DNA of 64,000 nt, taken from positions 87,490 through 151,489 of the forward strand of contig CAMTUG010000004.1 of assembly GCA_947084965.1 (NCBI GenBank), in the 5' to 3' direction. This DNA is from an uncultured Parcubacteria group bacterium. Its GTDB lineage: Bacteria; Patescibacteriota; Patescibacteriia; UBA9934; CAMTUG01. The notes under the pieces are model-generated. The model saw only the letters and a list, made by a program, of their open reading frames with translations. It had not been told where the DNA came from and did no database searches. Shown in pieces: positions 42,965-61,129 of this stretch (position 1 is its first letter; every line of letters starts with the position of its first letter). The translations under genes were made by a program, and so were the position numbers.

Positions 42965-43711
42965 ATGAAGATAAAAAACGGAGACCTCGTTCAATTAGGC
43001 GATCACTTTTTAATCTGCGGCGACTCGATGAATGAGAAAACGGTCGGTCGGCTGCTCGCGGGACGCGAGATCCAGCTCGTCCTCACCGACCCGCCCTACG
43101 GGGTGAGCTACGTGGAGAGCAAGATGGGATTCACGCAGTCGCTCGCGAAGCCGAAGGTGATCCAGAATGATCAGATCGAAAGCGAGGAGGAGTACGCCTC
43201 GTTCACGCGGGCATGGCTCGGTGCCTGTACACCGTTCATGGCCAAGAAAAACTCCATGTACATCTTCAACTCCGACCGGATGCTGTTTGCCCTCCGGTCT
43301 GGGATGGAAGCCGCTGGTTTCAAGTTCGCACAACTTCTCATCTGGGCGAAGACGCACGCCGTCGTAGGCCGCATGGACTACCTGCCGTCGCACGAGCTGA
43401 TCGCCTACGGGTGGCATGGGACGCACGCGTTCCGCAAGTCGAAGGATAAGAGCGTCATCATCTGCCCGAAGCCAAGCAAGAGCAAGTGGCACCCAACGTC
43501 CAAGCCCCGGCAACTCCTGCGTCGATTGATTCTTAACAGCTCAAAGGTCGGCGACACGGTTTATGAGCCCTTTGCCGGCGGAGGGTCATGCCTTCTCTCA
43601 TGCGAAGAAACGAGGCGCAAATGCCTGGCGGTTGAGCTGGATACGGAATACTGCGAAACCATCGTCATGCTCTGGGAACGCATGACGGGAAAGGAGGCTA
43701 TTAAGAAATAA
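42965..43711 (+). CDS. DNA methyltransferase (N6-adenine/N4-cytosine, DPPY class), orphan
   Basis: LVLTDPPYGVSY. Confidence 0.75.
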   Translation: MKIKNGDLVQLGDHFLICGDSMNEKTVGRLLAGREIQLVLTDPPYGVSYVESKMGFTQSLAKPKVIQNDQIESEEEYASFTRAWLGACTPFMAKKNSMYIFNSDRMLFALRSGMEAAGFKFAQLLIWAKTHAVVGRMDYLPSHELIAYGWHGTHAFRKSKDKSVIICPKPSKSKWHPTSKPRQLLRRLILNSSKVGDTVYEPFAGGGSCLLSCEETRRKCLAVELDTEYCETIVMLWERMTGKEAIKK

Positions 43712-43715
43712 TCGT

Positions 43716-44228
43716 ATGCCGAAGAAAACAGAAGCGTATCCCGCGAACACCAAGCGGATCGACGCGCAGAAGAAGCTCCTGCTCCAGCACATCGAGAAGA
43801 CGCCGATCGTCGAGGTCGTGTGCCAGAAGGTCGGCATCGGACGCACGACCCTCTATCGCTGGCTACACGAGGACGAATCGTTCGCTAAGGAATATGGCGA
43901 GGCCTTCGGCACCGGGGTCGATCTCATCAGCGACCTCGCGGAGTCGAAGCTCATCGGGAAAATCCAGGAGGGCGACATGACAGCCGTGAAGCTCTGGCTC
44001 GGCACACACCGCAAGGACTTCGTGAACAAGCTTGAAGTGAGCGCGACCAGGCAGGAAGAGATGACCGAGGAAGAAAAGAAGTTGATCGAGGCGGCGCACG
44101 CCCGGCTCGGCCTGATTGCACCACCGACAATTATTAACCCGCAACCATATGTCCAACCAATTCCTAGACCAGAAAACGATGAACTTAATTCTAAGCAACA
44201 AGGCGGCGAGGCTCATGCTCGTGAATAA
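43716..44228 (+). CDS. Terminase small subunit-like HTH protein
   Basis: The position (5' of TerL, overlapping it), size (170 aa) and HTH (GIGRTTLYRWL) fit a small terminase subunit. Confidence 0.5.
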   Translation: MPKKTEAYPANTKRIDAQKKLLLQHIEKTPIVEVVCQKVGIGRTTLYRWLHEDESFAKEYGEAFGTGVDLISDLAESKLIGKIQEGDMTAVKLWLGTHRKDFVNKLEVSATRQEEMTEEEKKLIEAAHARLGLIAPPTIINPQPYVQPIPRPENDELNSKQQGGEAHARE

Positions 44229-45924
44229 GTCCCATCGCAACTTCTTCGCCACGTATTTTCCCCATTACCTGACGTACCCGTGCGCGGACATCCACCAGCG
44301 ACTCTTTGACCTCACCGAAGACGCGAACAACAAGTTCGCCGTAGGCCAGACGTTCCGAGGTAGCGGAAAGTCGACGATTGTCTCGCTGTCATACGCGCTC
44401 TGGGCGATTCTCGGGTGCCAGCAAAAGCACCTCGTCGTGCTCGTCGCGAAGACTCAAGAACAGGCGAAGAGATTACTCGACGCCATCAAGCGCGAGCTTG
44501 AGACGAATAAGCTTCTGCAAGTCGACTTCGGGAAAATCCACGAAGAGAGTACCCCGTGGAACTCGACAGCACTGACGTTCAATGACCAGAACGCACAGAT
44601 CACCGCCATTTCCATCGACCAGGCCATGCGCGGCATGCGCTTCCAGAACTACCGCCCCGACCTCATCATCCTTGACGACATCGAGGACTCCGCCTCCGTC
44701 CGTACTCTCGAGTCTCGCGACCGCCTGCAGGAGTGGTTCGACAAAGACCTGCTCCCGGCAGGCGACACGAATACGCGGGTTATTCTTCTGGGTAACAATC
44801 TACATCCGGACTCCCTGCCGAACCGCATCATCGACCGCGTGCAAAACAGACAGTTCGACGCGAAGGTTATAAGGTGCCCGCTCGTTGACGAGAACGGCAT
44901 CTGCGCTTGGCCAGGAAAGTTCCCGACGAAGGAGTCGTTGGAAGCGCTTCGCAAGCTGTATTCATCCGAGCGTACATGGCGACAGGAATTCTTGTTACAA
45001 CCCGTCCTTTCGGAAGAAACGATCGTGAACGAACGGCAGATCAACTATTACGACGAGTTTCCCGAGGACGAGGACTGTGGTGTCTACGCGGCAATCGGCA
45101 TCGATCTTGCCTGTAGCACGTCGTCGCGGGCGGACAAGACCGCGATGGTCTGCGCGAGGGTCTATGGCAAGGGCGACGAGATGCGCGTCTACCTATTGCC
45201 AAACCTGGTCAACGACCGGCTGGAAATCCACGGATCGCTTGCGGAATGTGTCAATCTCGCCGGCCGCATCAGTCTCGACGGCGGCACCGGCCGGTCGTCG
45301 GTTCGGATATTCGTCGAATCCGTCGGGTTTCAAAAGACGTTCGCGCAGCAGCTTACCTCCCGTGGCATGAAGCGGGTGGAGGAATTCCAGCCAGGAAAGA
45401 TTGGGGACAAGCGCGACCGCCTCTACATGGCAGCCGACCTCATCAAGAGCGGACAGGTTCTCTTCCCTCGGCACGGGCTGGAGGAACTCACCGGGCAGAT
45501 TATAGCCTTCGGCGTCGAGCGGCACGACGATCTTGTCGACGCGTTCACGACACTCGTACTTAAGGTGATTGAAAATAACCCGAGGAACTCCAGCGTCGGC
45601 GTCGCTGTCGGCAACCTCAATAAGATTTATACGCCCGAAGAACTTGCAATTGAGAGGGAAAATCAGCGTCGTGATTACCGTGCGATGATGGACGGGTACG
45701 ACTATCGGGTTATGCTGGCAGAGCTGCACGCCAAGGGACAGTGCCCTAATCTCCGCATTGGTAATCCGTACGTCGCAAAACGGAAAAAGGTTTCTAATCC
45801 TGAGAAGCTACCAACGAAAGCTTCTGAAAAATTGAAACCATCGCATACGTGTCCAAACCACAATAATCCAACATATTCTTCCGTAACTGAGACTTCTGTT
45901 CAGAAGGAAGGTCAGGATTCGTGA
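44215..45924 (+). CDS. Terminase large subunit
   Basis: Walker A in FRGSGKSTIV and a nuclease-domain Asp in AAIGIDLA. Start taken at the ATG overlapping the TerS stop. Confidence 0.75.
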   Translation: MLVNKSHRNFFATYFPHYLTYPCADIHQRLFDLTEDANNKFAVGQTFRGSGKSTIVSLSYALWAILGCQQKHLVVLVAKTQEQAKRLLDAIKRELETNKLLQVDFGKIHEESTPWNSTALTFNDQNAQITAISIDQAMRGMRFQNYRPDLIILDDIEDSASVRTLESRDRLQEWFDKDLLPAGDTNTRVILLGNNLHPDSLPNRIIDRVQNRQFDAKVIRCPLVDENGICAWPGKFPTKESLEALRKLYSSERTWRQEFLLQPVLSEETIVNERQINYYDEFPEDEDCGVYAAIGIDLACSTSSRADKTAMVCARVYGKGDEMRVYLLPNLVNDRLEIHGSLAECVNLAGRISLDGGTGRSSVRIFVESVGFQKTFAQQLTSRGMKRVEEFQPGKIGDKRDRLYMAADLIKSGQVLFPRHGLEELTGQIIAFGVERHDDLVDAFTTLVLKVIENNPRNSSVGVAVGNLNKIYTPEELAIERENQRRDYRAMMDGYDYRVMLAELHAKGQCPNLRIGNPYVAKRKKVSNPEKLPTKASEKLKPSHTCPNHNNPTYSSVTETSVQKEGQDS

Positions 45925-47266
45925 GCGTCGCCCAGCTCGCGGATGCCGTGCCGCCTTCGTGTATGGCGAGATTGTTGTAAGAAAGCTCGGGACACATGAC
46001 AGGAAGAACCTTCTTGATCGACGCGCTGCCGCCGAAGCGGGAGTCGACGTAATAGCCCTTCTTCACGATCATCATCAGATCGTAGATGCGATCGTTCACG
46101 CTCGCCATGAAGTCAGCGAACTCGGGCAGGTGCTCTCCAATCTCCGCGTTGCGCGATGCCTCGAACCGCGCGTTCCAAACGATCACGCTTCCGACGTCAC
46201 CGATATGTTTCTTGAGGGACTCCGCGACCATCGGCGCGGGGTCTTTCATTTCATCGGCGAGGAATTCGTAGTGCTCAGGATCAGCTTCCGGCTCGCGCAT
46301 GACGTGGACGGAATATTGGAACACGGCGTGCTGGTACGGTCGGTAGTCGTCGAAGAGCGGCACTGCCGGGAAATACGTTTCATAGTCCAAAAAGTAGAGC
46401 GGGTACTGCAAACTATCGAAGTCAGACTTGATCGCATCCTTATCAATCGAAAGAGTCGGCGTGGCCTTCGTGCCCGGCAGTTTGATATCTCCAAGTTCGG
46501 CCATGACGTCGGCCGGAACTTGGTCGGGCTTGATAAACCCGCGTTCCAAAAAGGCGACAAGCTTCTCTTTCGGAAGCGATGCGGCTATGGAATACTTGTC
46601 GTCGCCGTTCAGCTCGGAAAAATAACAGGCAAGGAACTCGCACTCCGCTGGGTCGTTGCAGGACATGACGTGCATGAGGCGCGGCACCTTGTCCCAGTCG
46701 AGGACTGCGAGGGCGCGTGGGATTTCTTTCTTCGCCATCGGCATGACGTTTTCGACCTCGTGCGTTATGTCTACCTTGGTAAACAATTGTCCCGGATCAA
46801 TCTCGCCGTTACGGACGTACTGATTGTTGACGTGGACAAGAAACGTACGGGAGACGCGGATGCCAGCCTCCTCAAGGCAGATGCGTTGGAAAGCGACGTC
46901 TGTGATGTGCTCCTCTTTTACGTCAGTGGAACTCTTCACTTCGTAGATATCCCACGAGCCGTCGGCATTCTTCGTAAGGATGTCGCAACGGCAAGAAAGC
47001 TTAGCCGTCATGAACGTCGGCTGAAGCAAAATGGTCGCGCCGCTCGCGATTGCCTTCTTGGTGTTCTCAGCGGCCGGCTTGCCAAACCCATCAACGTTCA
47101 CGCCGCTTGGAAAGAGCTTTTGCGCCCACGCGTCGATTACGTTTCCCTCATCGAAGATGCGTTGGAGCGCAGGATCAGTGGGTGGAACCAAATCCGGCCG
47201 TTGCTTCACGAGCCACAGCTCGCACGAGCATCGGAGAAATTGCATGAAGTTGGATTTGGAGAGCAT
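45794..47266 (-). CDS. DUF2779-like protein (RecB/PD-(D/E)xK nuclease-related)
   Basis: N-terminus MLSKSNFMQFLRCSCELWLVKQRPD fits the DUF2779 pattern (LSKSxF...C..LWL). Its 3' end overlaps the TerL 3' end convergently by about 130 nt. Confidence 0.5.
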   Translation of the reverse strand: MLSKSNFMQFLRCSCELWLVKQRPDLVPPTDPALQRIFDEGNVIDAWAQKLFPSGVNVDGFGKPAAENTKKAIASGATILLQPTFMTAKLSCRCDILTKNADGSWDIYEVKSSTDVKEEHITDVAFQRICLEEAGIRVSRTFLVHVNNQYVRNGEIDPGQLFTKVDITHEVENVMPMAKKEIPRALAVLDWDKVPRLMHVMSCNDPAECEFLACYFSELNGDDKYSIAASLPKEKLVAFLERGFIKPDQVPADVMAELGDIKLPGTKATPTLSIDKDAIKSDFDSLQYPLYFLDYETYFPAVPLFDDYRPYQHAVFQYSVHVMREPEADPEHYEFLADEMKDPAPMVAESLKKHIGDVGSVIVWNARFEASRNAEIGEHLPEFADFMASVNDRIYDLMMIVKKGYYVDSRFGGSASIKKVLPVMCPELSYNNLAIHEGGTASASWATLTNPDLPSEQKSQLRKNMLDYCGLDTYAMVSIFQKLSLVASQD

Positions 47267-47275: not shown

Positions 47276-49438
47276 TTAAAGCTTGGTGAGCGCGTCACGC
47301 ACGAGGTCGCGATACTCGTCGCGGATGCGATAGTTATCCTTCCGCGCACCCGGGCGGTCGTGCTCGAGGTCGTAAATCAGGATGGCGCGGAGGTGGGCGT
47401 TGTTCGGGTTCGTCACGAACTGCGAGATGTTGCTGAGATATCGGCCGGACTGCCCGACATCCTTGCCGATGCCATTCACGTACAGGCTATCGCGAAGCTC
47501 CTCCTGGGTAAAGCCGCGATTGTCCGAAAGCAGGGTTTTCAGGAAGACGATAAGGCGCGGCGTGAGGTCGCTCACGCGCTCAAGCGTCTCCTCGAGCCTG
47601 TAACGGATGTCGTCGGTCGTGAGGACGTCGACCGGCATCTCCTCGCGCGTATCGCTTTCGTCCTTGGCGTACGAGGCATCGATGTCCTCGGCGGTAAGGT
47701 GCCAGGCTTCGACAAGTGAAGAGATTATTACCTCGGTGCGTTCTTGAATAACGGTTGGAGTCCATGAATCGTAATCCACGACCTCCTGCGTCATGCGGAA
47801 GGCGGAGAGGCCGTCCCTGTTCGTCTCGCCGCGATAGATCTTCACCTTCTCGGCGAACGGCTTGTTGGAGGCGGATTGGTTCTTCGACTTCCGGCTCTCG
47901 TCCATGCTTCCGGCGAGGAGCGTGAGGTTGCCGAGCGTATTCACGAGCGAGTCGTGTTCGTCCTCGGTGAAGTTTGCCGACCAAGACGGGTCGGTCATCG
48001 TCTGCGGCAGGATGTGCTCGAGCTGGACATTCTTCGTGAACGGGATCTCGCGGATCACCGAGTCGTCGAGGAGCGAGTACTCGTACTTGGCGAGCGCGTA
48101 CTTGCCGCAGCTCGCATGGTAGACGTCGCCGCGCAGGTTCTCCGTCGCGTCGCGCACGACGCGGTTCTTGCGCAGGAACGTCTCGAGCCGCGCGAGGATG
48201 GCGTCGACGGGCTGGTTCGCGTTCGCGTCGCGCACGGACGCGAGAAGCGGGGCAAGCACCCCGCGCGAGGTGTGTCCGGCGACGAGCGACAGTCCGCAGA
48301 ATCGCTCGATTCCCTCGATCAGCGTTCCGGCATTCTGTTTGGACAGTCCGTTTCTCCACGCGGCGATGATGGGCGGAAGCCAGTATCCGTGGCCGACGTT
48401 CCATAAAAGAAGCAAGGCCTTCTTGGCGGAACCGTTAAGGGGCTCGCCATGCCACGCGCCAGCCTTCAGTTCGACATACGCATCGACGGACTTCTTCCAG
48501 TCGTCCATGAACGTTCCCGTCGACAGACCAGCGTCCTTGATGTCCTCGGAGATCTCGCGGAACAAGTCCTTGCGCGAGCGGTCGCCGACGACGGCGATGC
48601 GGTGGAACCGCAGGAGGTCGTCCATTGGCACGCCGACCCGCTCGATCTCGCGCCATGTGTCTAGGAATGGTCGCTTCTCGTCGTCGAAGGACTTCCGCGC
48701 CGTCGGATGCTCGGCGTTATGGCGCGTGGTTTCTTCCTCAAGGCGTCGGATGAGCAGGTTCTTGAGCAGGTCCTTCGTGTCCAAGTCCTTGCCGCGCGTG
48801 TTGATCGCCTCGAAGATGGTGTACGCCGACGAAAACGAGTCGCTCGTCATCACGACAAGCATCACCTCGTCGAGCAGGAAGTGGTAGAAATCGTCGAGAT
48901 ACGTCATGATGTCCACTTCCGCATTCTTTGACTTCAGCTCCTCGCTCTTCTCGTCGATGAATTGTTTGAGAAGCCGGATCGCCATCTTGTACGTCTCGGG
49001 GAGGGCGGATCTTTCGTAGCCGGAAAGAACGCCGACGGACTTCAGAATATTTGCCTCGAACGCCGCGCGCTCCTCGGGCTTCACGCTCAGGCGGCACTTC
49101 CCGCGAATGATGCAGCTCTCCTGAATCTCGTTCGCGCGGTCGGGAAGATCTCCCTCAAAGAAAAAATCACGGAGCACGGCGAGGAGAATCATGGTCGTCG
49201 TCAGGCGCTGTCGCCCGTCGACCACCTCGAAGTCCTTACTGTCCCCGCGATTGACCAGAATCAGTTTGTCCAAAAAGTATCCGTCCTCCTTGCGCTCGTA
49301 GGCTTTGGTGAGATCCATCCAGAAGTCCTCCACGTTCTCCATCGTCCACTCGTAAGGGCGTTGGTAGTCGGGAATATTGTAGTAATTGCCGCCGGCGACG
49401 ACTTCGCGCATCCGACAGGGCTTGGCAGTGATGTTCAT
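47276..49438 (-). CDS. GmrSD-family type IV (modification-dependent) restriction endonuclease, DUF262 + DUF1524, with an extra C-terminal domain
   Basis: DUF262 motif VVDGRQRLTTT (DGQQR variant) and DUF1524 His-Me finger region NVQLEHILPQ. Confidence 0.75.
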   Translation of the reverse strand: MNITAKPCRMREVVAGGNYYNIPDYQRPYEWTMENVEDFWMDLTKAYERKEDGYFLDKLILVNRGDSKDFEVVDGRQRLTTTMILLAVLRDFFFEGDLPDRANEIQESCIIRGKCRLSVKPEERAAFEANILKSVGVLSGYERSALPETYKMAIRLLKQFIDEKSEELKSKNAEVDIMTYLDDFYHFLLDEVMLVVMTSDSFSSAYTIFEAINTRGKDLDTKDLLKNLLIRRLEEETTRHNAEHPTARKSFDDEKRPFLDTWREIERVGVPMDDLLRFHRIAVVGDRSRKDLFREISEDIKDAGLSTGTFMDDWKKSVDAYVELKAGAWHGEPLNGSAKKALLLLWNVGHGYWLPPIIAAWRNGLSKQNAGTLIEGIERFCGLSLVAGHTSRGVLAPLLASVRDANANQPVDAILARLETFLRKNRVVRDATENLRGDVYHASCGKYALAKYEYSLLDDSVIREIPFTKNVQLEHILPQTMTDPSWSANFTEDEHDSLVNTLGNLTLLAGSMDESRKSKNQSASNKPFAEKVKIYRGETNRDGLSAFRMTQEVVDYDSWTPTVIQERTEVIISSLVEAWHLTAEDIDASYAKDESDTREEMPVDVLTTDDIRYRLEETLERVSDLTPRLIVFLKTLLSDNRGFTQEELRDSLYVNGIGKDVGQSGRYLSNISQFVTNPNNAHLRAILIYDLEHDRPGARKDNYRIRDEYRDLVRDALTKL

Positions 49439-49672: not shown

Positions 49673-51130
<1,458 letters not shown>

Positions 51131-51145: not shown

Positions 51146-51283
51146 CTTTCGAAGACGGAAGACGAACTGATTGTTCGCATTCCACTTGTTCGTCGGCTTC
51201 GCCCAATTGTTGTTGAGCCACGACCCGTCGTCATTGCGTTCCACGTTGAAGACGTTCGGGTTGCCGTCCGAGTCGGATTGCAT
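51146..51283 (-). repeat. DGR template repeat (TR)
   Basis: About 138 nt homologous to 51596-51735. In the VR frame it encodes ...NVERNDDGSWLNNNWAKPTNKWNANNQFVFRLRK, with AAC/AAT codons where VR varies. Confidence 0.8.
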
Positions 51284-51580
51284 GGCGTGCCACCATTGCC
51301 ACTGCCCGCCTATCTCAAAAGAGGTCGGGCTGTATTTTATGCGTGATCGAAAATCACCAAGCACACCATACCAAGTACTTCATTTTTGTTTGGACACAAT
51401 GCGCATCCTCCGAAGGGAACCGTAGCCACCCTCGTTCTCAACACGCATGTACCGAAAAGGCCTTTGGACAGCCGTAACCGCCCATATGAACCAGTCTAGA
51501 CGCCAGAATAACAAAAATTTTCCGATCCGCCTACGGCGGAAAGTATCAAAGGGTCAAAGGAACAAAGTTTCAAGAAGAAG

Positions 51581-53803
51581 CTAAGACTTCAAGGGTTTCT
51601 TGCGAAGACGGAAAACGAACTGACTGTACGCAGGCCACCCGTACGTCGGCTTCGCCCAATTGAGGCCGAGCCACGACCCGTCGTCATTGCGCCCCACGTA
51701 GAAGACGTGCGGCCAGCCGCCCGAGGCGGAAATTTGCTTCATGCCAACGTACACGTATTCGTTCATCGGCTGATTCGCATATTGCAGACGGAACTGCGGG
51801 CCTACTTCCGGCGGACAGAGTTCAAGGCCTAGTTCTTCCGCTCGGGCATAAATCTGATCCGTCGTGGCTCCGCTCGGGAACCCAAGGTCTTCGACGCGAA
51901 GGCGAATAAGCGTCGCTTCCTCCGGAGATTTGATCTTCCACTGTTTCCAGTCCGGCTGATTCTCATCCGGTTCTCGGAGAGATCGCTTGAAGTCGTCATG
52001 CTCCAACATCCATCCCACGTAGTCAAAGCGGTGTCCATTTTGCGTAAGAAAACTTTCTAGTTCACGTTCATCCTTGCCACCAATCTCAATGTTCTGGCGG
52101 GGGATTTTTCCTTCAGGGAAGGAAGTGTATACGTTCTCCACACCCTCGGGGAGACGGTCGAAGATGCCGGGATCGAGTTTGCCGACGTAGGCTTTGGTCG
52201 ATTCGTTGATTTGATCGACCGAATGGGCAATTTGGCTTTCGTCACACTCGAAGACAACAAGGATATCCTCGTCAGTATTTCGCTGACCACGAAGCTCCGC
52301 GACGCGTGGATCCTTATCATAACCGAAACCCTCGATAGGGGTGTCGATTTCGTAGAGGAACAGGAGGTCGTTTTTTGTGAGAGGTTTACCAACGACGGTT
52401 TTTTGTTCAATGAGCGTTAGAAGCCGCATATCCCCGGCCTTCTTCTCGTAAGCCGCGCCGTCCGGGAATTCTTTCATCTTTGCGCCGACGACCGGAGCGA
52501 TATGCGGATCAAGGTTTTGGTCGGGGGCGATACCGCGAACTTCGGCGATCTTGTCGCCTTCCATGCGGATGGCGGCGCGAGGGATGCTGTTTGCGCCGTC
52601 CTCGTCTTGCGAATAGTAGACGTAAAAATCACCGCGGGAGAGTTGAGATTTCGCCACCTCCTCTCCGGCGGTACACCAACCCGTCTTGTGGCGTTCGATG
52701 GATTGAACCAGCTCGGTTGGCTCAGAGCCTTTGTTGTACTTTATCCATTGTCCGGCGGTGTTATGAAGAAGCGTTTCACTTGTGGGAATGAGCTTGGCAA
52801 ATTCAAGGGCATAGAGTCTGGCAAAGTCCTTGGCATCCAAGGCTTGTTGAACTTCTGGTTCAAGATTGCGATCGTCGACAGGGGTTTCAATTTCAAACGT
52901 CGACGGATCAAATGGAGCCATGTCCAAATCCGCGATGATTCTTTCACGATCAACGGGTACGGTCGGATGTTGTTTCTTCGCTTGCGCAATCCTTTGGCCA
53001 ATAACAAGCTGGCGCTCCTTGTTATGCTTTCTTTCCGCTCGTTCCAACTCTTCTCTAGAAGCGGCAAGGCGCTCCTTGTACACACGATCATGCTCCACGT
53101 GGTCACGAACCTTTCCAAGAACGGCTTGATCCAATTCCGGGAACGGGTTCATGGTCTCTTCGTCCCTGGACGGAAAGACCTTGGTGTCTTTATCAAAGCT
53201 GGAAAGCCCGGTGACGCTTCTCATTGCCCAATACCTGAACCAGTCCGGATAGGCGGCTTGAGCGTCGTCGGTTGCCAGATAGTCGATCCATTTATCCAGT
53301 GATCGTTTTTGATCGTCGATCTTGGCGACGATTTCTTCCACCATCTGCTTTTGTTCGTTCTCAAAATCTTGAATTTCGTCCTTGATGTCCGACCCTTTGG
53401 CGCTGGCTTCGACCGCACGCGCGATCTGATCGCGAACCTCGTCCGGAATTTCCGTGTCCCCGTGTCCCAAGGCACGCGCTTGTTTTTGTTGGTGACCCAA
53501 ATATTCGTCGGTGGCGACGTTAGGCTTCACGATAAGCGCGTCGTGCATGAAGCGCTTCATCATGGAAAGATTGCGCTCTTTGCGGTCGAAATTCTCGTGT
53601 CCTTCGAGTTTGGGAGGGTTCAAAATCGTATCCAAGCGTCCAAGATAAGCCTGGATGCGTTCTTCGGGGGTATTGCGGACGCGAGAACCCTTGCGCTCCC
53701 GCGCGGCAACGGCGCGCTCGACATCCTCGGTTTTTTCCACTTGGTACTTTTGCCTGAGAAATTCAGGATTTGATCCATTTTCCATATGGGGGAATGGTAG
53801 CAA
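51581..53803 (-). CDS. DGR target (variable) protein, 740 aa, no signal peptide or TM evident, C-terminal VR
   Basis: C-terminus ...SASGGWPHVFYVGRNDDGSWLGLNWAKPTYGWPAYSQFVFRLRKKPLKS. The N-terminal about 600 aa have no recognised motif. Confidence 0.8.
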   Translation of the reverse strand: MLPFPHMENGSNPEFLRQKYQVEKTEDVERAVAARERKGSRVRNTPEERIQAYLGRLDTILNPPKLEGHENFDRKERNLSMMKRFMHDALIVKPNVATDEYLGHQQKQARALGHGDTEIPDEVRDQIARAVEASAKGSDIKDEIQDFENEQKQMVEEIVAKIDDQKRSLDKWIDYLATDDAQAAYPDWFRYWAMRSVTGLSSFDKDTKVFPSRDEETMNPFPELDQAVLGKVRDHVEHDRVYKERLAASREELERAERKHNKERQLVIGQRIAQAKKQHPTVPVDRERIIADLDMAPFDPSTFEIETPVDDRNLEPEVQQALDAKDFARLYALEFAKLIPTSETLLHNTAGQWIKYNKGSEPTELVQSIERHKTGWCTAGEEVAKSQLSRGDFYVYYSQDEDGANSIPRAAIRMEGDKIAEVRGIAPDQNLDPHIAPVVGAKMKEFPDGAAYEKKAGDMRLLTLIEQKTVVGKPLTKNDLLFLYEIDTPIEGFGYDKDPRVAELRGQRNTDEDILVVFECDESQIAHSVDQINESTKAYVGKLDPGIFDRLPEGVENVYTSFPEGKIPRQNIEIGGKDERELESFLTQNGHRFDYVGWMLEHDDFKRSLREPDENQPDWKQWKIKSPEEATLIRLRVEDLGFPSGATTDQIYARAEELGLELCPPEVGPQFRLQYANQPMNEYVYVGMKQISASGGWPHVFYVGRNDDGSWLGLNWAKPTYGWPAYSQFVFRLRKKPLKS
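51596..51735 (-). repeat. DGR variable repeat (VR) at the 3' end of the target gene
   Basis: It differs from TR at about 24 positions, almost all of them TR adenines in the coding sense (for example AAC to GGC, CTC, TAC, CCT, TAC, AGT). There are 2-3 non-adenine differences. Confidence 0.8.
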
Positions 53804-54391
53804 AAAACGGGAAGATCGTGTAGTCGGAATAGGAGCAGGCCTAAGCTTCCAAATTTGAAGGGTTTGTCGGGCTTTTTAAAGCCTAGACAACCCCAACCAT
53901 TGTGGCATTGATGTGGGGGGAACTATGAAGAATCCACTCGAGCTTACGGTCAATTTAGAGGCGTTTCAGCTCCCGGAAGGGTCTGTGATGACTTCGAAGG
54001 AGGTAACAAAGGAACTCGCCTCCCAGTAGAGGCCATACTGACCGCGACGCTTTTTCGATGCAACGGAGGGTTTGTGACGGTTATCACCGCAGCCAACAGA
54101 CGGCTCAACCTGAAGGCGGTGATGCACGAACTCGACAACAACTGGGTAACGTATCCCAATGAAGATGAGTGGGGGTGATCTCGGTGCGGTCGACCGGAAC
54201 AATCCGTTCGGTCTCGCAAGCGATCCGAGGGTCACGACGTTCATTGACGCACTCGTGCTCAAACAAAAAGAAGTCGCGTTTCAGGTGAGTGGGAACCGCG
54301 CCATCAAGGTGGCGATGAACGGCCTCGTTATTGGAACGAGAGCAAAATTGCTTGGTGGAATCTCCTTGCCGAAACGATTTTAATAATCCAA

Positions 54392-54425
54392 AAACGCGAC
54401 CCGTGATGAGCCGCGTTTTGACTGC
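54392..54425. terminator. Bidirectional rho-independent terminator 3' of hsdR
   Basis: AAAAACGCG-ACCCGTGATGAGC-CGCGTTTTT. Confidence 0.5.
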
Positions 54426-54449
54426 TGATGACGAACGATAACAGTCGCA

Positions 54450-57400
54450 CTAGAACCTCCCGCCGGATATGTCGAAGAACCGCTCGAAGAATCCCGTGAG
54501 CTTGCTCAATACGCTTTCTCGCTTTTGCGTGCGCTCTCCCGACGGAGAGAAGCGAGATACAGGAGGTAGGACTTTCGTGATCGCTGTACCTGTTGTTGAC
54601 ACGACCCCGTCTCGGAACGCATTTTGAATGAATTTATGTGTCGCTTCCGGATCGAGATTTTCCTGTTCAATAATTTGATCAAGTTCCTCGATCTTTTTCT
54701 CCTCGACGAACTTGTGCCAATCCTCGTCAACGATCGAATGCACATCAAGAGAGGTAATGAACTTGTTAATGAGATCCTTCTTGTTACGTAGTTCAATGCT
54801 CGAATCGATGGCCTTGTTGATGTCCGCCAGGATCTCCCGATTCTTCGTGTGGTCTTCGTGATATTTTTTGATCAATCCGAGAACGTAGTCGATGTTAATC
54901 TCAACCTGCTTAATCAATTCCATCTCGAACACGAGATCGTCGTTGATGTTTTCCTTCTCCGCCTCGTCGCTCTTTCGGAACTCATGGTAGAGGTCGATGT
55001 ACAGGCTGTGATAATCCTGAACGTCGCGCTCGGTAAGAATTTCATTCCCCGTAAATTCATCGAAGGCGGAGAGAATGTTTCGTACCCGCAGAATCGCGCC
55101 GTAGAGCTTGATGAAGTCCTTTTGCGCCTGCTCTCCCACGATTTCTTCTCCGATAGGAAACTTCTGACGTAACTCATCAACGAGGCTCTGATATCCACGC
55201 ACTTCTTTTTCTCCGTCACGGTATCCGTTGTAGTAGTCGACGTACGATTTCAGAAGGACGATTCCGCCCGCTTCCTTGTCGCCGAAAAGCGCGATGGACT
55301 CATTCGTCGCCTTCTCGAGGTTACGGAAGCAGACGATATTACCGAATGTCTTCACGCTATTTAAAATACGATTTGTGCGCGAATACGCTTGTAATAATCC
55401 GTGCAAGCGAAGATTCTTATCCACCCAGAGCGTGTTCAGTGTTGTCGCGTCAAAACCGGTCAGGAACATGTTAACGACGATGAGGATGTCGATTTCCCGA
55501 TCCTTCACCTTTTGGCTGACATCCTTGTAGTAGTTTTGAAACTTATCCGCCGAGGTATCGTAAGACGTCCCAAACATGGTGTTGTAGTCCGCGATGGCGC
55601 TGTCCAAGAAGTCGCGAGAGCTTGCATCGAGTCCACTTGTATCCTCCGAGTTTTCGTCGATCACGCCGTCGGCCTCCTCCTCATTCACGCCAAAGCTAAA
55701 GATCGTTGCCACCTTCAATTTTTGGTCGCTCGGAACATCTGCCAGCTGACGCTTGAACTCCGCGTAATACTTCTTTGCCGCATCAATGGAGGAAACCGCA
55801 AAAATGGAATTGAACCCTGCCAACCGCCGATCTTTCAGCTGGTAGAAGCTGTTGCGCTTGGTTTTCTGGTCGAAGTGGTCGCGAATGTACCGTACAATAT
55901 TCGCCAAACGCTCAGGTGCGGCGAGCACAGCCTCGCGGTCGATATCGTTGACCTTTTTATCCTCAATATCCTCGGCTTCGCGCACGGTGGATACGTAGTC
56001 AACCTTGAACGGCAGGACGTTTTTGTCTGCGATCGCGTTGACGATGGTATAGGTGTGGAGCTTCTCGCCGAAGGCCTGTTCGGTTGTCTTCAGGTCGATG
56101 CGACCGCCCGAGGATGCATTCGCCGCGAAGATCGGGGTGCCGGTGAAACCAAAAAGATGGTAGTTCTTGAACGCCTTGGTAATCGCCGTGTGCATGTCGC
56201 CAAATTGTGAGCGATGGCATTCGTCGAAGATGAGGACGACGTGTCCGTCAAAAATGGCGTGCGCTCCATTGCGGGCAATGAAACGGTCGAGCTTCTGGAT
56301 CGTGGTGATGATGATATTCGCATTCGGGTTTTCGAGCTGACGCTTCAATACCGAAGTGCTCGTATTGCTGTTGGCCGCGCCCTTTTCGAACTTGTCGTAC
56401 TCGCGCATGGTCTGGTAGTCCAAATCCTTACGGTCGACGACGAACACGACCTTATCGACGAAGGACATTTTGCTCGCGAGTTGGGCAGTCTTGAAGCTCG
56501 TCAGCGTCTTTCCGGATCCCGTTGTGTGCCACACGAAGCCACCCGCCTCGATCGTGCCTAGCTTCTTATAATTCGTGCTGACTTCGATACGATTGAGAAT
56601 CCGCTCCGTGGCAACAATCTGGTACGGACGCATGACCAGCAACAATCGGTCGGTGGTAAAGACGCAGTAACGCGTCAAAATGTTGAGAAGCGCGTGCTTG
56701 GCAAAAAAGGTCTTGGCGAAGTCCATCAAGTCGGTGATCGGTCGGTTCGTGGCATCCGCCCACCAGCTCGTGAATTCAAAGCTGTTGCTCGCACGCTTGC
56801 CTTTCTTAACACCGCCCTCACTTGATTCCTTGATGTGCTGCTTTCGCGTGGTGTTGCTGTAGTATTTCGTGTGCGTCCCGTTGGAAATCACGAACAGCTG
56901 GACGTATTCAAACAGTCCGGCGGACGCCCAGAAACTTTCGCGCTGGTATCGGTTGATCTGATTGAAGGCCTCCTGAATGGCTACACCCCGGCGCTTCAGC
57001 TCGACGTGGACGAGCGGGAGGCCGTTCACGAGAATAGTGACGTCATAGCGGTTCGCACGCTGGCCGTCCTCGGTCGCATACTGATTTATGACTTGCAGGC
57101 TATTGTTGTGGATGTTGTCCTCCTTGAGGAGATAGACGTTCTTCGTCGTGCCGTCGTCGCGGATAAGATTCTTGACGTAGTCCTCCTGAATGGTCGCCGT
57201 CTTTTCCTCGATGCTCTGATTGGCGTTTGCAATTTCGGTAGTGAAAAATTGCTTCCATTCCGTATCAGTGAACGCAAAGCCGTTGAGCTTTTCAAGTTGC
57301 TGGCGCAGGTTGGCAACCAATTCCTCTTCCGACGTGATGGTGACGTAATCGTATGCCTGCGTTTTAAGCTGTTCAATGAACGCACGCTCAAGTTCCGCCT

Positions 57401-57503
57401 CGCTCTGATAGTGGGCGACGCGCTTTCCGTCCGGCGTATATTCAGCCACCACGGTGCTCTGCGCACTTTCGGCAACGAGATTGTATTTCTTAGGCTTCGG
57501 CAT
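54450..57503 (-). CDS. hsdR: Type I restriction enzyme R subunit
   Basis: 1017 aa with Walker A TTGSGKTLTSF and DEAH-box FDECHRSQ. Confidence 0.9.
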   Translation of the reverse strand: MPKPKKYNLVAESAQSTVVAEYTPDGKRVAHYQSEAELERAFIEQLKTQAYDYVTITSEEELVANLRQQLEKLNGFAFTDTEWKQFFTTEIANANQSIEEKTATIQEDYVKNLIRDDGTTKNVYLLKEDNIHNNSLQVINQYATEDGQRANRYDVTILVNGLPLVHVELKRRGVAIQEAFNQINRYQRESFWASAGLFEYVQLFVISNGTHTKYYSNTTRKQHIKESSEGGVKKGKRASNSFEFTSWWADATNRPITDLMDFAKTFFAKHALLNILTRYCVFTTDRLLLVMRPYQIVATERILNRIEVSTNYKKLGTIEAGGFVWHTTGSGKTLTSFKTAQLASKMSFVDKVVFVVDRKDLDYQTMREYDKFEKGAANSNTSTSVLKRQLENPNANIIITTIQKLDRFIARNGAHAIFDGHVVLIFDECHRSQFGDMHTAITKAFKNYHLFGFTGTPIFAANASSGGRIDLKTTEQAFGEKLHTYTIVNAIADKNVLPFKVDYVSTVREAEDIEDKKVNDIDREAVLAAPERLANIVRYIRDHFDQKTKRNSFYQLKDRRLAGFNSIFAVSSIDAAKKYYAEFKRQLADVPSDQKLKVATIFSFGVNEEEADGVIDENSEDTSGLDASSRDFLDSAIADYNTMFGTSYDTSADKFQNYYKDVSQKVKDREIDILIVVNMFLTGFDATTLNTLWVDKNLRLHGLLQAYSRTNRILNSVKTFGNIVCFRNLEKATNESIALFGDKEAGGIVLLKSYVDYYNGYRDGEKEVRGYQSLVDELRQKFPIGEEIVGEQAQKDFIKLYGAILRVRNILSAFDEFTGNEILTERDVQDYHSLYIDLYHEFRKSDEAEKENINDDLVFEMELIKQVEINIDYVLGLIKKYHEDHTKNREILADINKAIDSSIELRNKKDLINKFITSLDVHSIVDEDWHKFVEEKKIEELDQIIEQENLDPEATHKFIQNAFRDGVVSTTGTAITKVLPPVSRFSPSGERTQKRESVLSKLTGFFERFFDISGGRF

Positions 57504-58644
57504 ATTCTTTGAAAGTCAGGAGTTTCTCCCGGTAGTACTCATACTGTTTGCGCCGAGCGGCGAGCTCTGCTGGAAGACCGACGGAGATGTCATTCACAAG
57601 TGCGTCGAACTTGTCGAGAATCGATACGATGCGTTCTTGTTGGGCAAGAGGTGGGATGGGGATTTGGACAGTCGTTAGTTCTTTTTTATTAACCGCTGGG
57701 ATACTTCCGGTTTTTCTTAGCCCAACAATTGCTGCCTGGATATTCTTAAGATAGTAGTAGACATATTTTGTAAGCAATCCTTCTTTCCGACTTCTGATCC
57801 TGTAACAAAGTGGGCCGCACCAGAAATCTGTTTTTTGATAGCCAACGTGTCCTGCGCCACCCTGTCCCCTGGAAGGAATAGTGATCGTTTCAGCTGGTGA
57901 ATTTTTTTCTGATAGGTAACCGGAAGGTTCATTCCCTGCATTAATAAAAGGAAAGGCATTTACGCCTATAATTGAACTTCTATCAGGTGCTTGACCTGTG
58001 CCAATATCGCAAACCTCACCCAAAGCCGTCCATTCTAGATCCGCATCTAACACTAGAAGTTTCGAACGATAATGTTCGTATTGCTTCTTCCTTGCTTCCA
58101 GCTCTGCTTCCAGCTCTGCTTCCAGCTCTGTGAAAGAGTTTAGCACGCGGACAATCTCTTCTTGGACAGCGACAGGAGGGATGGGGATTTTGATTCGATT
58201 TAAAAAATCAACTGTAATTCCTTTTACTATCGTTCCATTTCCGACAACGTTTATCGTTTGAAAATAATAGGTTAAAAATCTGTTGTTTAGAAATGGTTGC
58301 AATTCAAGCCCGCGCAGATCTTGATTGATCGCAATATCTGTCCCCGCAATTTTCATTTTTCCCGGTGAAATTTTTACAGCAACTATCACGCTACCCTTTG
58401 GAATCAAGTGACTTGAGCTGTCTTCCAGTCCTTCTTTGGTAATGAAATTTCTAGTTGCGTGAATTTCAATATTTACGTTGGAAAGATCTCCAACTGAAGC
58501 CCATGGGATATCACCGTTCCAATAGCTTAATCTAGACTTAGATGGAGTTCCGCCTCCAATATTTCTAATAACACATTCGCCTAATGGTTTGAATACGACC
58601 CCATTCGGGCAGAATTGAGCAATTAATTTTTCAATCTTACTCAT
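57490..58644 (-). CDS. hsdS: Type I restriction-modification specificity subunit
   Basis: Two target-recognition domains separated by conserved helices (LEAELEAELEARKKQYEHYRSKLL and LAARRKQYEYYREKLL). It overlaps hsdR by 14 nt. Confidence 0.85.
   Translation of the reverse strand: MSKIEKLIAQFCPNGVVFKPLGECVIRNIGGGTPSKSRLSYWNGDIPWASVGDLSNVNIEIHATRNFITKEGLEDSSSHLIPKGSVIVAVKISPGKMKIAGTDIAINQDLRGLELQPFLNNRFLTYYFQTINVVGNGTIVKGITVDFLNRIKIPIPPVAVQEEIVRVLNSFTELEAELEAELEARKKQYEHYRSKLLVLDADLEWTALGEVCDIGTGQAPDRSSIIGVNAFPFINAGNEPSGYLSEKNSPAETITIPSRGQGGAGHVGYQKTDFWCGPLCYRIRSRKEGLLTKYVYYYLKNIQAAIVGLRKTGSIPAVNKKELTTVQIPIPPLAQQERIVSILDKFDALVNDISVGLPAELAARRKQYEYYREKLLTFKEYAEA
58095..58130. repeat. Tandem 12-bp repeat (GCTTCCAGCTCT)x3 inside the hsdS central conserved region, encoding (AELE)3 on the coding strand
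   Basis: Seen directly; three perfect copies. Confidence 0.85.
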
Positions 58645-58648
58645 ATGG

Positions 58649-60208
58649 CTACTTCGTTCCTTCTATATCACGCACAATTTCATCAATAGAGGTACGGAGT
58701 TCGTTTTGATGCGCAACAATTTTGTCGATCTCTGAATTCAACCTCATTATATCGACAACTTCGCGAATGTCTTCGGCTACGATATAACTTGAAACGGCAA
58801 TATTGTAGTCGTTGTCAGCGACAGCCTGATTATCGATAACTTTTGCGAAGTATTCGACGTCCTTACGGTTCGTGAATGCTTCCAAGATCTTTGCTCGATT
58901 TGTATCACTGAGCTTGTTTTTATTACCGCCGCGCACAAACTCTGAAGATGCGTCAATGAAAAGCGTTTTATTGTCCTTCTTGCTCTTCTTTAATACAATG
59001 ATGCAGGTCGCGATCGTAGTGCCGAAAAAGAGATCGGGCGGAAGCTGGATCACAGCGTCGACGTAGTTATTGTCGACAAGGTACTTGCGGATTTTTTGTT
59101 CTGCGCCTCCTCGGTAAAGGACACCAGGGAATTCAACGATCGCTGCAGTGCCGCTCGTGGAAAGCCACGAAAGCATGTGCATGGCAAAAGCAAGATCGGC
59201 CTTGCTCTTTGGAGCTAACACACCGGCTGGCGCGAAGCGTGGGTCATTAATAAGGAGAGGATTGCCGTCTCCTTCCCATGTAATCGAGTACGGCGGGTTT
59301 GAAACGATGGCATCAAACGGCTCGTCGTCCCAATGTTTTGGATCGGTCAGCGTGTCGCCGTGGGCGATATTGAAATGGTTGTAGTTGATGTCGTGCAGGA
59401 ACATGTTGATACGACAGAGGTTGTAGGTTGTGAGGTTGATTTCCTGGCCATAAAAACCCAGCCGCACATTTTCTTTGCCAAGAACCTTCGCGAATTTCAA
59501 AAGAAGCGATCCAGAACCGCAGGCAGGGTCATAAACCTTGTTTACTTCCATTTTGCCGACAGTCGTGATCTCAGCAAGAAGCTCGCTGACTTCTTGCGGC
59601 GTGTAGTATTCGCCTCCCGACTTGCCGGCATTCGATGCGTACATCGCCATGAGGTACTCATACGCATCACCAAACATGTCGATCGTGTTCTCCGTATAAT
59701 CTCCGAGGCTCAGATCGCCAATCGTTTCCAAAAGCTTAGCGAGCTTTTGATTTCGCTTCTCGACTGTATTGCCGAGCTTGGGCGAATTAACGTCAAGATC
59801 TTGAAACAGGCCGTTCAAATCATCCTCGCTATCAAATCCCTTCGCGGAACTTTCAATGTTACGGAATACTGCGGCGAGCGTCTCGTTAAGATTCGCGTCT
59901 TCCCGAGCCCGTGCGCGAACATTCACGAAGAGCTCGCTTGGCAGAATGTAAAATCCTTTTTCTTTCACTGTGTCAGCCCGACCAAACTCCGCGTCTTTGT
60001 CGGAAAGGGCGGCGTAGTTGAAGCTGGCGGTACCAGCGCGGCGTTCATCAGCATTGATGTAGCTTGTGAGATTCTCGCTGATGAAGCGGTAAAAAAGCAT
60101 TCCAAGCACATACTGCTTGAAATCCCAGCCATCAATGCTCCCTCGCAGATCGTTTGCGATTTGCCAGATAGCGCGATGCAGCTCTGCGCGTTCGTCTTCT
60201 TTGCTCAT
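58649..60208 (-). CDS. hsdM: Type I restriction-modification N6-adenine DNA methyltransferase subunit
   Basis: Motif I DPACGSGSLL and motif IV VSNPPYS. Confidence 0.9.
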   Translation of the reverse strand: MSKEDERAELHRAIWQIANDLRGSIDGWDFKQYVLGMLFYRFISENLTSYINADERRAGTASFNYAALSDKDAEFGRADTVKEKGFYILPSELFVNVRARAREDANLNETLAAVFRNIESSAKGFDSEDDLNGLFQDLDVNSPKLGNTVEKRNQKLAKLLETIGDLSLGDYTENTIDMFGDAYEYLMAMYASNAGKSGGEYYTPQEVSELLAEITTVGKMEVNKVYDPACGSGSLLLKFAKVLGKENVRLGFYGQEINLTTYNLCRINMFLHDINYNHFNIAHGDTLTDPKHWDDEPFDAIVSNPPYSITWEGDGNPLLINDPRFAPAGVLAPKSKADLAFAMHMLSWLSTSGTAAIVEFPGVLYRGGAEQKIRKYLVDNNYVDAVIQLPPDLFFGTTIATCIIVLKKSKKDNKTLFIDASSEFVRGGNKNKLSDTNRAKILEAFTNRKDVEYFAKVIDNQAVADNDYNIAVSSYIVAEDIREVVDIMRLNSEIDKIVAHQNELRTSIDEIVRDIEGTK

Positions 60209-60211: not shown

Positions 60212-61129
60212 CTATTTGTTCAAATCGTAGCTCTGCTTGATAAGTCCGAGCGCGTAATCAAAATCCTGATCCGACTTGATCTTGATCTCGTAATCTCCGT
60301 TGCCCCAATGACCTTTTTTCGGATTGGTGAAATCCGTCGCCCGATGCTCTGGATCGTTTAACTCGCCGCTTTTTACGTTGAGCGTAATCCGTAGTTCGTC
60401 CTTATAGAAGATTACGTCAGCAAAGTTCGTCGTCAGTTTGTAAGCGACGTACATTTTCTTGGGTACTTCGGTTACTTCCTCGTCAAATGCCAAGATCGCT
60501 TCGCGCAACTTCATGAAGATGGCTTTGGTTACCTCGTTCGATTTTTGCACGTGCTCTTCTATAGTGTAATTTTTCTGCAACGGTTCGGCACCATCTGGAG
60601 ATTTCTCATGCTTTGCTTTACGGACAATGCCTGATGTTGAAACTTTGACGCGCTGATAATTTTCCGGCTCGAGATACAAAATGTTGTCATCGTAAATCCT
60701 GTAGCGAAAGAGCTCGATATTGATAGGAAGAAAATCCGCAGTGTCGATGTCGAACTTGTTGTAGCTTTCGGCGACGCAAATCACGCGGGACGAGTCCCAA
60801 TCGACCTCAATAGCAACCGCACGTTCTCCACAGAGGGCTTCAAACTCGGCCTTGTGATCGAGAAGCCAGCGAAGGTACGAGAGGCCTTGGTTGATCACGC
60901 TTTCATTTGTCGACCGTTTGTATTCGATAATAACCGGCGCACCGTTCTTATCGATTCCGAGCGTGTCGATCCGGCCGCCGAAGCTCGTTGAGTACTCGGT
61001 AGCCAAGAACGTGATATTCAAAATCTCCTCAAGATTTTGCTCGAAAAGCCGCTGGAGATCTCGTTCTAGACGGACATCCTTGGCGGTTAGGCGTTTTACC
61101 TTGGTTTGATTGATCTGAAATAAGGCCAT
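60212..61129 (-). CDS. PD-(D/E)xK nuclease-superfamily-like protein co-transcribed with hsdMSR
   Basis: GGRIDTLGIDKNGAPVIIEYKR fits a D...(D/E)xK pattern; 4-nt gap to hsdM. Confidence 0.45.
   Translation of the reverse strand: MALFQINQTKVKRLTAKDVRLERDLQRLFEQNLEEILNITFLATEYSTSFGGRIDTLGIDKNGAPVIIEYKRSTNESVINQGLSYLRWLLDHKAEFEALCGERAVAIEVDWDSSRVICVAESYNKFDIDTADFLPINIELFRYRIYDDNILYLEPENYQRVKVSTSGIVRKAKHEKSPDGAEPLQKNYTIEEHVQKSNEVTKAIFMKLREAILAFDEEVTEVPKKMYVAYKLTTNFADVIFYKDELRITLNVKSGELNDPEHRATDFTNPKKGHWGNGDYEIKIKSDQDFDYALGLIKQSYDLNK

Follow-up and report, generated by a model that had tools for sequence, protein, structure and literature searches.

This report concerns a diversity-generating retroelement (DGR) in a 64,000-nucleotide stretch of DNA from an uncultured Parcubacteria group bacterium (GenBank assembly GCA_947084965.1, contig CAMTUG010000004.1, positions 87,490 to 151,489 of the forward strand). 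This stretch is called the window below, and positions are counted from its first letter. The DGR is a cassette of 4.1 kb with four parts: the gene for the variable target protein, a template repeat (TR) directly after it, the accessory gene avd on the opposite strand, and the gene for the reverse transcriptase (RT). The 3' end of the target gene forms the variable repeat (VR), a diverged copy of TR. The features of the locus and of its surroundings are collected in Table 1.

Table 1. The DGR cassette and neighboring features of the window
Feature	Position	Strand	Remarks
DGR target (variable protein) gene	51581..53785	-	734 amino acids from ATG at 53785; ORF list and translation
VR	51599..51730	-	Last ~44 target codons; 83% identity to TR
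TR	51146..51277	-	132-nt repeat; 37 adenines, 22 A-containing codons, 11 AAY codons
avd (bAvd-like four-helix-bundle protein)	50816..51130	+	Opposite to target and RT; TTG at 50807 is a possible alternative start
DGR RT gene	49673..50833	-	Pfam RVT_1, E = 2e-23; PADLOC generic RT model, E = 3e-54
(GA)18.5 microsatellite	50720..50756	-	37 nt, within the RT ORF near its 5' end, separating the conserved leader from the RT core
GC hairpin CCGCC-GTA-GGCGG	51527..51539	-	~45 nt past the target stop codon; spotted by eye
GmrSD type IV restriction enzyme	47276-49438	-	Context; Pfam/PADLOC
DUF2779/Cas4-like nuclease	45794-47266	-	Context
Type I restriction-modification, HsdR	54450-57503	-	Context
Type I restriction-modification, HsdS	57490-58644	-	Context
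Type I restriction-modification, HsdM	58649-60208	-	Context
DUF5655 (PDC-S18)	60212-61129	-	Context
Large serine recombinase	61263-62636	+	Pfam Resolvase, Recombinase, and Zn_ribbon_recom
AAA_13 ATPase, PDC-S06 (PrrC-like)	62613-63881	-	Pfam/PADLOC
Phage-derived block	41695-45924	+	ParB-fused DNA methylase, second methylase, small and large terminase subunits

The mechanically called open reading frame (ORF) of the target runs on the minus strand from 51581 to 53803 and has 740 codons, starting with a TTG at 53803. A sequence-only reading of the window had described the DGR target as a protein of this length. The ORF and its identity as the DGR target hold, and the length has been corrected: because close and distant homologues all begin at a methionine seven codons in (MENGSNPEF or MKEGSNPEF in the alignment of relatives), the gene most likely starts there and encodes 734 amino acids. 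VR spans codons 692 to 735 of the 740-codon ORF, and diversification is confined to the C terminus of the protein, as the same reading had proposed.

Read on the minus strand, TR and VR differ at 22 of their 132 positions. Since 20 of the 22 differences fall on adenines of the copy at 51146 to 51277, that copy is the template, and with 37 adenines in 22 codons its coding capacity is about 10^20 protein variants. No second VR and no further TR-like sequence was found in the window. The Avd protein matches the Pfam bAvd model (E = 3e-13) and the NCBIfam model DivGenRetAVD (E = 1e-17), the latter with 64.2 bits, which is under the model's curated cutoff of 80, and the position and orientation of avd are identical in related loci. 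The RT is 57 to 80% identical to RTs that adjoin the same target family in other candidate phyla radiation (CPR, or Patescibacteria) genomes; its assignment to the DGR type was judged from the RVT_1 match and from its identity to RTs beside A-biased TR/VR pairs. Five features by which a DGR is recognized are present, namely, an RT beside repeats, an A-biased TR/VR pair, a VR at the 3' end of the target gene, an Avd, and a signal of diversification. The GC hairpin that follows the target gene may be a target-recognition hairpin or a terminator. Taken as a whole, inferred parts included, the best explanation of the ORF is that it encodes the dedicated variable protein of a CPR-type DGR, and we consider this probable.

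The cassette order appears, on an assumed correspondence, to be that of the B3 architecture, which Wu et al. (2018, PMC5758913) reported in 90% of CPR DGRs. The element resembles the CPR DGR lineage (clade 2 in PMC8144416, the "CPR set" in PMC5758913) in coming from the same host group and in having a target with no transmembrane segment, signal peptide, or known domain. It differs in that the published surveys did not characterize the target family found in the window, for which there is no curated model.

Comparison of the window with two related loci, L007 and L008, shows what the retroelement has done. TR is 98.5% identical among the three, whereas the DNA of the cassettes is only ~80% identical. 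The three VRs share just 32 to 51% identity at the positions of TR adenines, compared with 96 to 98% elsewhere, and the mismatches between TR and VR lie at TR adenines in 21 of 21 cases in L007 and 18 of 18 in L008. Among six relatives (77 to 84% or more identity), the VR stretch is 63% identical in pairwise comparison, against 79 to 94% for the remaining protein. Because TR is conserved while the VRs diverge at TR-adenine positions, we infer repeated mutagenic retrohoming since the lineages split. These comparisons, which are between genomes, indicate that the DGR is complete and recently active and that about 22 codons are rewritten at the C-terminal tip of its target.

An additional feature of the locus is the (GA)18.5 microsatellite within the RT gene. 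The RT leader begins with the ATG at 50833 (MRRNVHPNQISLFD...), overlapping the start of avd on the opposite strand, and the RT core begins with ...YQDIISVENL; in the window, leader, repeat, and core share a single frame, the "on" frame. When loci L003 to L086 and L089 to L208 were compared, an equivalent tract was present in 119 of the 120 non-identical related loci, in the form of (GA)n of 6 to 40 nt or poly-G of 7 to 18 nt. No (GA)6 or longer repeat was found elsewhere in the first 86 of these loci (~20 kb each). The leader frame remains open as far as the tract, and the core frame is open downstream of it, each in 119 of 119 loci, with the other frames often closed. Leader and core lie in the same frame in 33 loci, are offset by +1 in 42, and are offset by +2 in 45, which cannot be told apart from an even spread (chi-square P = 0.38). 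All 33 in-frame loci have an uninterrupted ORF from the leader ATG into the core; of the 87 shifted loci, 30 have a core that contains no ATG, GTG, or TTG at all. Furthermore, six sets of contigs that agree fully in the 18 nt flanking the tract on each side differ within the set in tract length, and in five of the six the frame differs as well. A first metagenome scan with the exact flanks of the window repeat tract gave no match.

Read from the tracts themselves, this anatomy is that of a simple-sequence contingency locus placed on the RT of a DGR. Like the simple-sequence-repeat contingency loci of Neisseria, Haemophilus, and Campylobacter (PMC11868660), it has a hypermutable tract in the 5' coding region that decides the reading frame. 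It differs from them in that the gated gene is a DGR RT and not a surface or modification gene, and in that on/off switching is here a proposal made from the tract sequences. We put the chance that the tract acts as a phase-variable switch on the RT at about even. One alternative is that slippage during transcription or translation makes the length of the DNA tract irrelevant, and the evenly spread frames would fit this too. Another is that assembly noise at repeats accounts for the differences in tract length, and a third is that the tract serves the divergent promoters of avd and the RT gene. A search of full texts turned up no paper that ties DGRs to phase variation mediated by repeats.

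The target protein itself has no recognizable domain, in agreement with the sequence-only reading. The target and several of its homologues gave no match in Pfam (also at E ≤ 10), NCBIfam, PHROGs, or PADLOC, and Pfam and NCBIfam revealed no NTPase, nuclease, TIR, SIR2, or known effector domain in the target. A profile of 72 homologues, when compared with PDB sequences, gave only a chance match to L22 (E = 0.28). A confident AlphaFold2 model was obtained with the 72 homologues and had a mean predicted local distance difference test score (pLDDT) of 89.2 and a predicted template modeling score (pTM) of 0.70. The model has a long helical N-terminal region, in which residues ~112 to 150 and a 50-residue helix at 220 to 272 are both insertions of an Uhrbacteria-like subfamily. 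An alpha/beta unit at about residues 345 to 465 contains the invariant motifs of the family and is followed by helices and then a mixed region, and the chain ends in a beta-alpha-alpha-beta-beta-beta-beta domain of ~110 residues (622 to 727) with VR in its last strands. Foldseek searches returned no match below E = 1 in PDB, where the top row was the C-type lectin domain of mincle, and none below E = 0.38 among the viral models of BFVD. The weak structural matches of the model, obtained with the whole protein as the query, are C-type-lectin-like and GNAT-like.

As with other DGR targets, a C-type-lectin-like scaffold is the probable identity of the C-terminal domain. The variable proteins with this fold (Mtd of Bordetella phage BPP-1, TvpA of Treponema, and the archaeal AvpA) likewise have a C-terminal VR that ends in a ...FRLRK-type motif, with variable positions supplied by AAY codons in TR, and the predicted C-terminal domain of the window protein gives weak lectin-like structural matches. 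Mtd forms the tip of a phage tail fiber and TvpA is a lipoprotein; the window target, in contrast, has neither a tail-fiber context nor a signal. Among the solved variable proteins in PDB there was no significant sequence match and no strong structural match to it.

The central unit provides two further leads. Its order of elements, beta1-alpha1-alpha2-beta2-beta3-beta4-alpha3, is that of the N-terminal half of the GNAT fold. GNAT proteins carry a loop of the form Q/R-x-x-G-x-G/A, and the invariant E-V-R-G-I-A of the target family would occupy the place of this loop, as read from the sequence and not from the output of a tool. The second lead is PcfJ. A "PcfJ-like" motif has been described upstream of VR in some CPR targets (Wu et al., PMC5758913), and by eye it matches the block GWC...YVYYS...PRAAIRM...EVRG...QNLD of the window protein. 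The PcfJ domain (PF14284; PcfJ of pCF10) resembles this block in the order of its motifs, [W/H]C ... hydrophobic strand ... P..[AT][IL].. ... [VI].[VI][RQ]G ... [NQ]. By eye, it is the C terminus of pCF10 PcfJ that aligns with the block, and the top hhalign alignment uses the same register. With pCF10 PcfJ and with a shallow alignment of seven PcfJ sequences, hhalign gave E = 0.12 to 0.19, with a probability below 1% at E = 0.19; the profile was a poor one, drawn from close Enterococcus relatives only. The Pfam PcfJ model gave no match at E ≤ 10 in five family members, in a search where the HMMER filters drop most matches above about E = 0.1. Membership of the target family in PF14284 is therefore not established, since the hhalign score is not significant and the Pfam model has no match.

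The indications on location point to a soluble protein, as the sequence-only reading had suggested from inspection by eye. The N terminus is charged and hydrophilic, and the highest mean Kyte-Doolittle hydropathy over 19 residues is 0.59; the usual threshold for a transmembrane segment is near 1.6. By hydropathy only, a hydrophobic N-terminal or transmembrane-like stretch is also absent from 216 of 219 family members. Of the three exceptions, one has a miscalled start and two have signal-like N-terminal extensions. These analyses indicate that the target is soluble, with no Sec/Tat-type signal or transmembrane segment, and a cytoplasmic location would be the simplest reading of this absence of export signals. 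CPR targets in general, unlike most cellular DGR targets, have no recognizable transmembrane, signal, or other domains, and Roux et al. (2021, PMC8144416) left open whether they are truly nonmembrane proteins or have membrane features that merely go unrecognized.

An alternative is that the protein reaches the outside or the surface of the cell without the help of a classical signal and serves in the attachment of these episymbiotic bacteria to their hosts or to particles. This is unlikely, given that nearly all members lack a hydrophobic N-terminal or transmembrane segment, that the N terminus is conserved, charged, and helical, and that no similarity to adhesins, tail fibers, or cell wall anchors was found with Pfam, PHROGs, or BFVD. 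The many invariant polar residues of the N-terminal module, moreover, make it look more like an enzyme or a subunit of a complex than like a stalk. What speaks for attachment is that cellular DGR targets are for the most part anchored in the membrane and bind extracellular ligands (PMC8144416), that CPR bacteria depend on other cells (PMC10221324), that 2 of the 219 relatives have extensions resembling signal peptides, and that the best of the weak matches to the C-terminal fold are to extracellular lectin-like domains.

The soluble target belongs to a large family. A search of 5.8 billion proteins yielded more than 1,500 relatives at 90% clustering, with full-length identities of 37 to 84%, and an exhaustive profile search gave 7,702 clusters (at 50% identity) with E ≤ 1e-3, of which 1,900 had E ≤ 1e-30. 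A pattern scan using one genome per species located relatives in 390 species genomes. Relatives with a named source all come from CPR bacteria, for example, Uhrbacteria, Parcubacteria, Levybacteria, and Magasanikbacteria; the host range was taken from record titles, in which the phylum-level names are CPR names from many classes and some titles are generic or conflicting.

In the alignment of the family, the first ~530 residues are strongly conserved, with more than 50 invariant positions and an invariant block of the form T-G-W-C-T-A-G-E ... G-D-F ... P-R-x-A-I-R-M ... E-x-R-G ... Q. The variable positions cluster in the final ~45 residues and are exactly those encoded by A-containing TR codons. 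Many representatives match the profile only from position 3 to about position 420 to 440 and then continue into other C termini, as does the relative on viral contig L088. Because members pair this N-terminal module with differing C termini, the module is the constant part of the family. Some members are longer: P0006 (935 amino acids) has a NUDIX domain, P0081 (L032:1963-4566; 867 amino acids) has a SpoU methylase domain, and P0177 and P0231 (973 to 1,131 amino acids) have several matched stretches. The extra enzymatic domains or repeated C-terminal stretches of these proteins could represent either real fusions or read-through of lost stop codons.

The cassette behaves as a discrete unit. 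Nucleotide homology between the window and L007 and L008 extends exactly from 53806 to 49743, beginning with the first target codon and stopping where the RT gene ends. In 37 of 81 family loci, an A-biased TR directly follows the target, and Avd and RT come next in the window arrangement. Conversely, when metagenomic loci were chosen solely by the RT leader motif, 35 of the 36 with room for a target carried a member of the target family, so that the RT lineage and the target family travel together. Comparative analysis thus shows the cassette to be a discrete unit, judged by sequence, across hundreds of CPR genomes. At one locus (L068:9995-14984), two tandem target copies, each with its own identical TR (12215-12353 and 15321-15459), precede a single Avd/RT pair. 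In the window, the spacer of 646 nt between HsdR and the target (53804 to 54449) is gene-free, has no Rfam match, and is ~87% conserved with L047; L007, L008, and L009 lack it, their homology to the window beginning at the first codon of the target.

In the window, the target is flanked by GmrSD, a type I restriction-modification (R-M) system, a DUF2779 nuclease, and an AAA_13 ATPase, all of which had been named in the sequence-only reading and were verified here. That reading took the neighborhood to suggest an adaptable immune sensor and proposed that co-occurrence of homologues with defense genes be checked in other genomes. In this comparison, defense genes were not a property of the family. 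L007 and L008, the next-closest relatives (84% protein identity), have different flanks with no R-M or GmrSD genes. L007 is flanked by a serine recombinase and a weak SIR2-like gene, with an IS110 transposase after the RT gene; L008 has phage-type methylases and genes of unknown function; and L009 has GroEL. Homologues of the window defense genes lie beside the target only in L047, a near relative in which the entire upstream stretch is shared and HsdR is 98% identical, and L086 has one HsdM homologue 8.6 kb from the target. No homologue of the window defense genes was found in 114 further loci, and no DUF2779 or GmrSD homologue adjoins the cassette in ~200 related loci. R-M and GmrSD were accordingly rejected as conserved partners, being gone from the next-closest relatives, where homology breaks at the ends of the cassette.

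The neighbors of the other cassettes are mostly housekeeping genes. When all ORFs of 83 loci were clustered, no recurrent partner gene emerged: apart from RT, Avd, and a TR pseudo-ORF, no neighbor family occurred in more than 7 loci, the commonest being DsbA-like thioredoxins, a small GIY-YIG protein, and a class I tRNA synthetase. The 131 neighbors within 4 kb of 27 DGR-linked cassettes likewise have mainly housekeeping assignments in Pfam, led by FemAB, sigma-70, tRNA synthetases, Mur ligases, FolD, IF-2, and phosphoglucomutase. In the gene tables of four homologues we saw GroES/GroEL, NusA, YidC, MreB, glycosyltransferases, DNA polymerase III delta', RRF, GatCAB, Lgt, ribosomal protein S6, SSB, and EF-P. 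PADLOC matches in two sets of neighbors (135 and 131 proteins) were sporadic, comprising an AbiE pair, one type IV enzyme, and a few methylases; other matches were generic, as with a UvrD helicase that hit many of the GajB and PDC-S05 models. Neither a STAND/NACHT NTPase nor a MoxR-vWA system was present in the target or among recurrent neighbors. Because its relatives do not sit among immunity genes, the target shows no conserved partnership with such genes, and because the defense-island setting is not a property of the family, the neighborhood is a weak guide to function here.

These results bear directly on the proposal of a cytoplasmic immune sensor, in which the diversified tip of the target would recognize components of phages or plasmids and the protein would work within, or because of, the defense island. 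The lack of an export signal agrees with this proposal, as do the defense genes on both sides of the window cassette, the type I R-M system beside the target in L047, the SIR2-like gene next to the cassette in L007, and a family distribution that is patchy and mobile, like that of defense genes. DGR-diversified putative antigen sensors of conflict systems have in fact been proposed in multicellular bacteria (Dore et al. 2024, PMC10907252). In those systems, too, a DGR diversifies a predicted intracellular binding domain thought to sense invaders. The sensors of Dore et al. are, however, conservedly tied to NACHT/STAND NTPases or to MoxR-type ternary systems, a partner that the window family lacks, and both the RT lineage and the host group differ. 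We regard the immune sensor as rather improbable, since the target matches no PADLOC model and contains no NTPase or known effector domain, homology with the next-closest relatives stops exactly at the ends of the cassette and defense neighbors are missing from those relatives, and clustering disclosed no conserved partner in 80 species-level loci. Neither an export signal or anchor nor a tail-fiber or adhesin N terminus was found (hydropathy, PHROGs, BFVD, and viral contigs), so a cytoplasmic sensor of some kind is possible; beyond the missing export signal, nothing that we found argues for a sensor role.

The surroundings of the cassette are mobile-element DNA as much as they are a defense island. 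The sequence-only reading had overlooked terminase genes, two phage-type DNA methylases, and a large serine recombinase in the same stretch. The terminase genes (43716 to 45924) match PHROGs families for the large subunit (E = 1e-73) and the small subunit (E = 1e-10), and because no portal or capsid genes follow, the cluster looks like a prophage remnant. The phage-derived block abuts the DUF2779 and GmrSD genes, and methylases related to those in the block lie just upstream of the target in L008. Large serine recombinases are found beside the cassette in several loci that are otherwise unrelated, at L007:7856-9025, L047:1091-2425, L049:515-1510, L063:19999-21345, and L083:23-202, and on viral contig L088 they lie on both sides of it (5163-6575 and 13994-15607); the cassette may thus sometimes ride on a serine-recombinase element. 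We read these findings to mean that in Uhrbacteria-like genomes the cassette tends toward variable DNA rich in mobile elements, in which restriction systems have accumulated in the window lineage. The R-M, GmrSD, DUF2779, and AAA_13 neighbors would then be co-residents of a mobile region and not functional partners. The AAA_13 ORF covers profile positions 314 to 711 of 713 (Pfam) and is preceded by an in-frame stop, so this gene seems to be truncated, frameshifted, or continuing in another frame toward the end of the window.

A mobile setting also raises the possibility that the cassette is the cargo of a phage or integrative element and that the target acts for this element, for example, in host range or antidefense, and not for the cell. 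Terminase and phage-type methylase genes within 6 kb, the large serine recombinases at the loci listed above, and the IS110 transposase of L007 would all suit such cargo. Set against them is the scarcity of the family in viruses: 2.9 million viral contigs in IMG/VR contain a single relative, the distant one on L088, compared with 390 species genomes. In addition, the target has no PHROGs family and no structural match in BFVD, most loci have housekeeping neighbors and no phage genes, and the terminase cluster of the window has the look of a remnant. Overall, this explanation is very unlikely. A phage tail fiber was rejected as the identity of the target in view of its 0 PHROGs families, its lack of a BFVD match, and its single relative in viral contigs.

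Further observations concern the remainder of the window. A transfer-messenger RNA (tmRNA) gene at 31445 to 31826 on the plus strand (tag ANLITKLRNAYSAPAFVPAFA; 142 bits) is the sole Rfam match in the window. Genes of this kind are common integration sites, and the DNA to the right of it, from ~34 to 64 kb, looks largely accessory. Within a block at 12 to 24 kb, an ORF on the minus strand (14789 to 17977) encodes a predicted 1,062-amino-acid lipoprotein with an LAGC lipobox, built of many Cys/Asp-rich repeats of the form CDDxD..NPGAxExCNxxDDDCDGxVDE. The GC content of this block is 60 to 70%, compared with 45 to 57% in the DGR region, and the block could be foreign DNA or the product of a chimeric assembly.

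For the dedicated variable protein of a CPR-type DGR, as we read the ORF, the following course of events can be envisaged. RNA of TR would be copied by the RT-Avd complex into adenine-mutagenized cDNA, which would replace VR by mutagenic retrohoming and so could yield up to ~10^20 variants of the tip. The C-terminal domain would serve as a C-type-lectin-like binding scaffold, and its variable tip would steer the conserved N-terminal module toward changing ligands that are most likely intracellular; the module may be an enzyme whose alpha/beta core is GNAT- or PcfJ-like. The supply of RT may be gated by the hypermutable repeat in the 5' coding region of its gene. In its most extended form this scheme would be a two-tier bet-hedging device, in which a repeat-switched RT is coupled to a stand-alone cytoplasmic sensor-effector of new fold, with a catalytic core resembling GNAT or PcfJ, whose lectin-like tip is retargeted to recognize molecules of invading phages or of a host cell. 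We regard the combined device as a long shot, and its sensor-effector half as much less likely than gating by the repeat.

Several points weigh against the overall interpretation of the target as a soluble, dedicated DGR variable protein that is independent of its defense neighbors. Some concern the protein: the C-type-lectin assignment comes from weak structural scores of a whole-protein query, two of the 219 relatives have signal-like N-terminal extensions, and export routes without such a signal could exist in CPR cells. Others concern the cassette, in that ~30 family loci with sufficient flanking DNA show no DGR within 10 kb, so that targeting in trans or else DGR loss must be frequent. 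Finally, the PADLOC tallies have no genome-wide baseline and would accommodate a modest enrichment of defense genes near the cassette, and among close relatives L007 has its SIR2-like neighbor and L047 the same R-M system.

Both the absence of export signals in CPR targets (PMC8144416) and DGR-diversified immune sensors in other bacteria (PMC10907252) have been published before. New here are the delineation of a large target family, its fold model, its modular build, the definition of the cassette as a discrete unit, and the negative result on defense. With 7,702 clusters, the target family appears to be very large within the CPR DGR lineage, and a fold model, a set of mutable invariant residues, and a transplantable 4.1-kb cassette are now at hand for it. 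Because a fold model, a defined module, and a compact cassette are available, the question raised by Roux et al. about CPR targets becomes testable. Should the tract within the RT gene prove to be a genuine switch, no contingency locus before it would have been seen to control a targeted-hypermutation machine.

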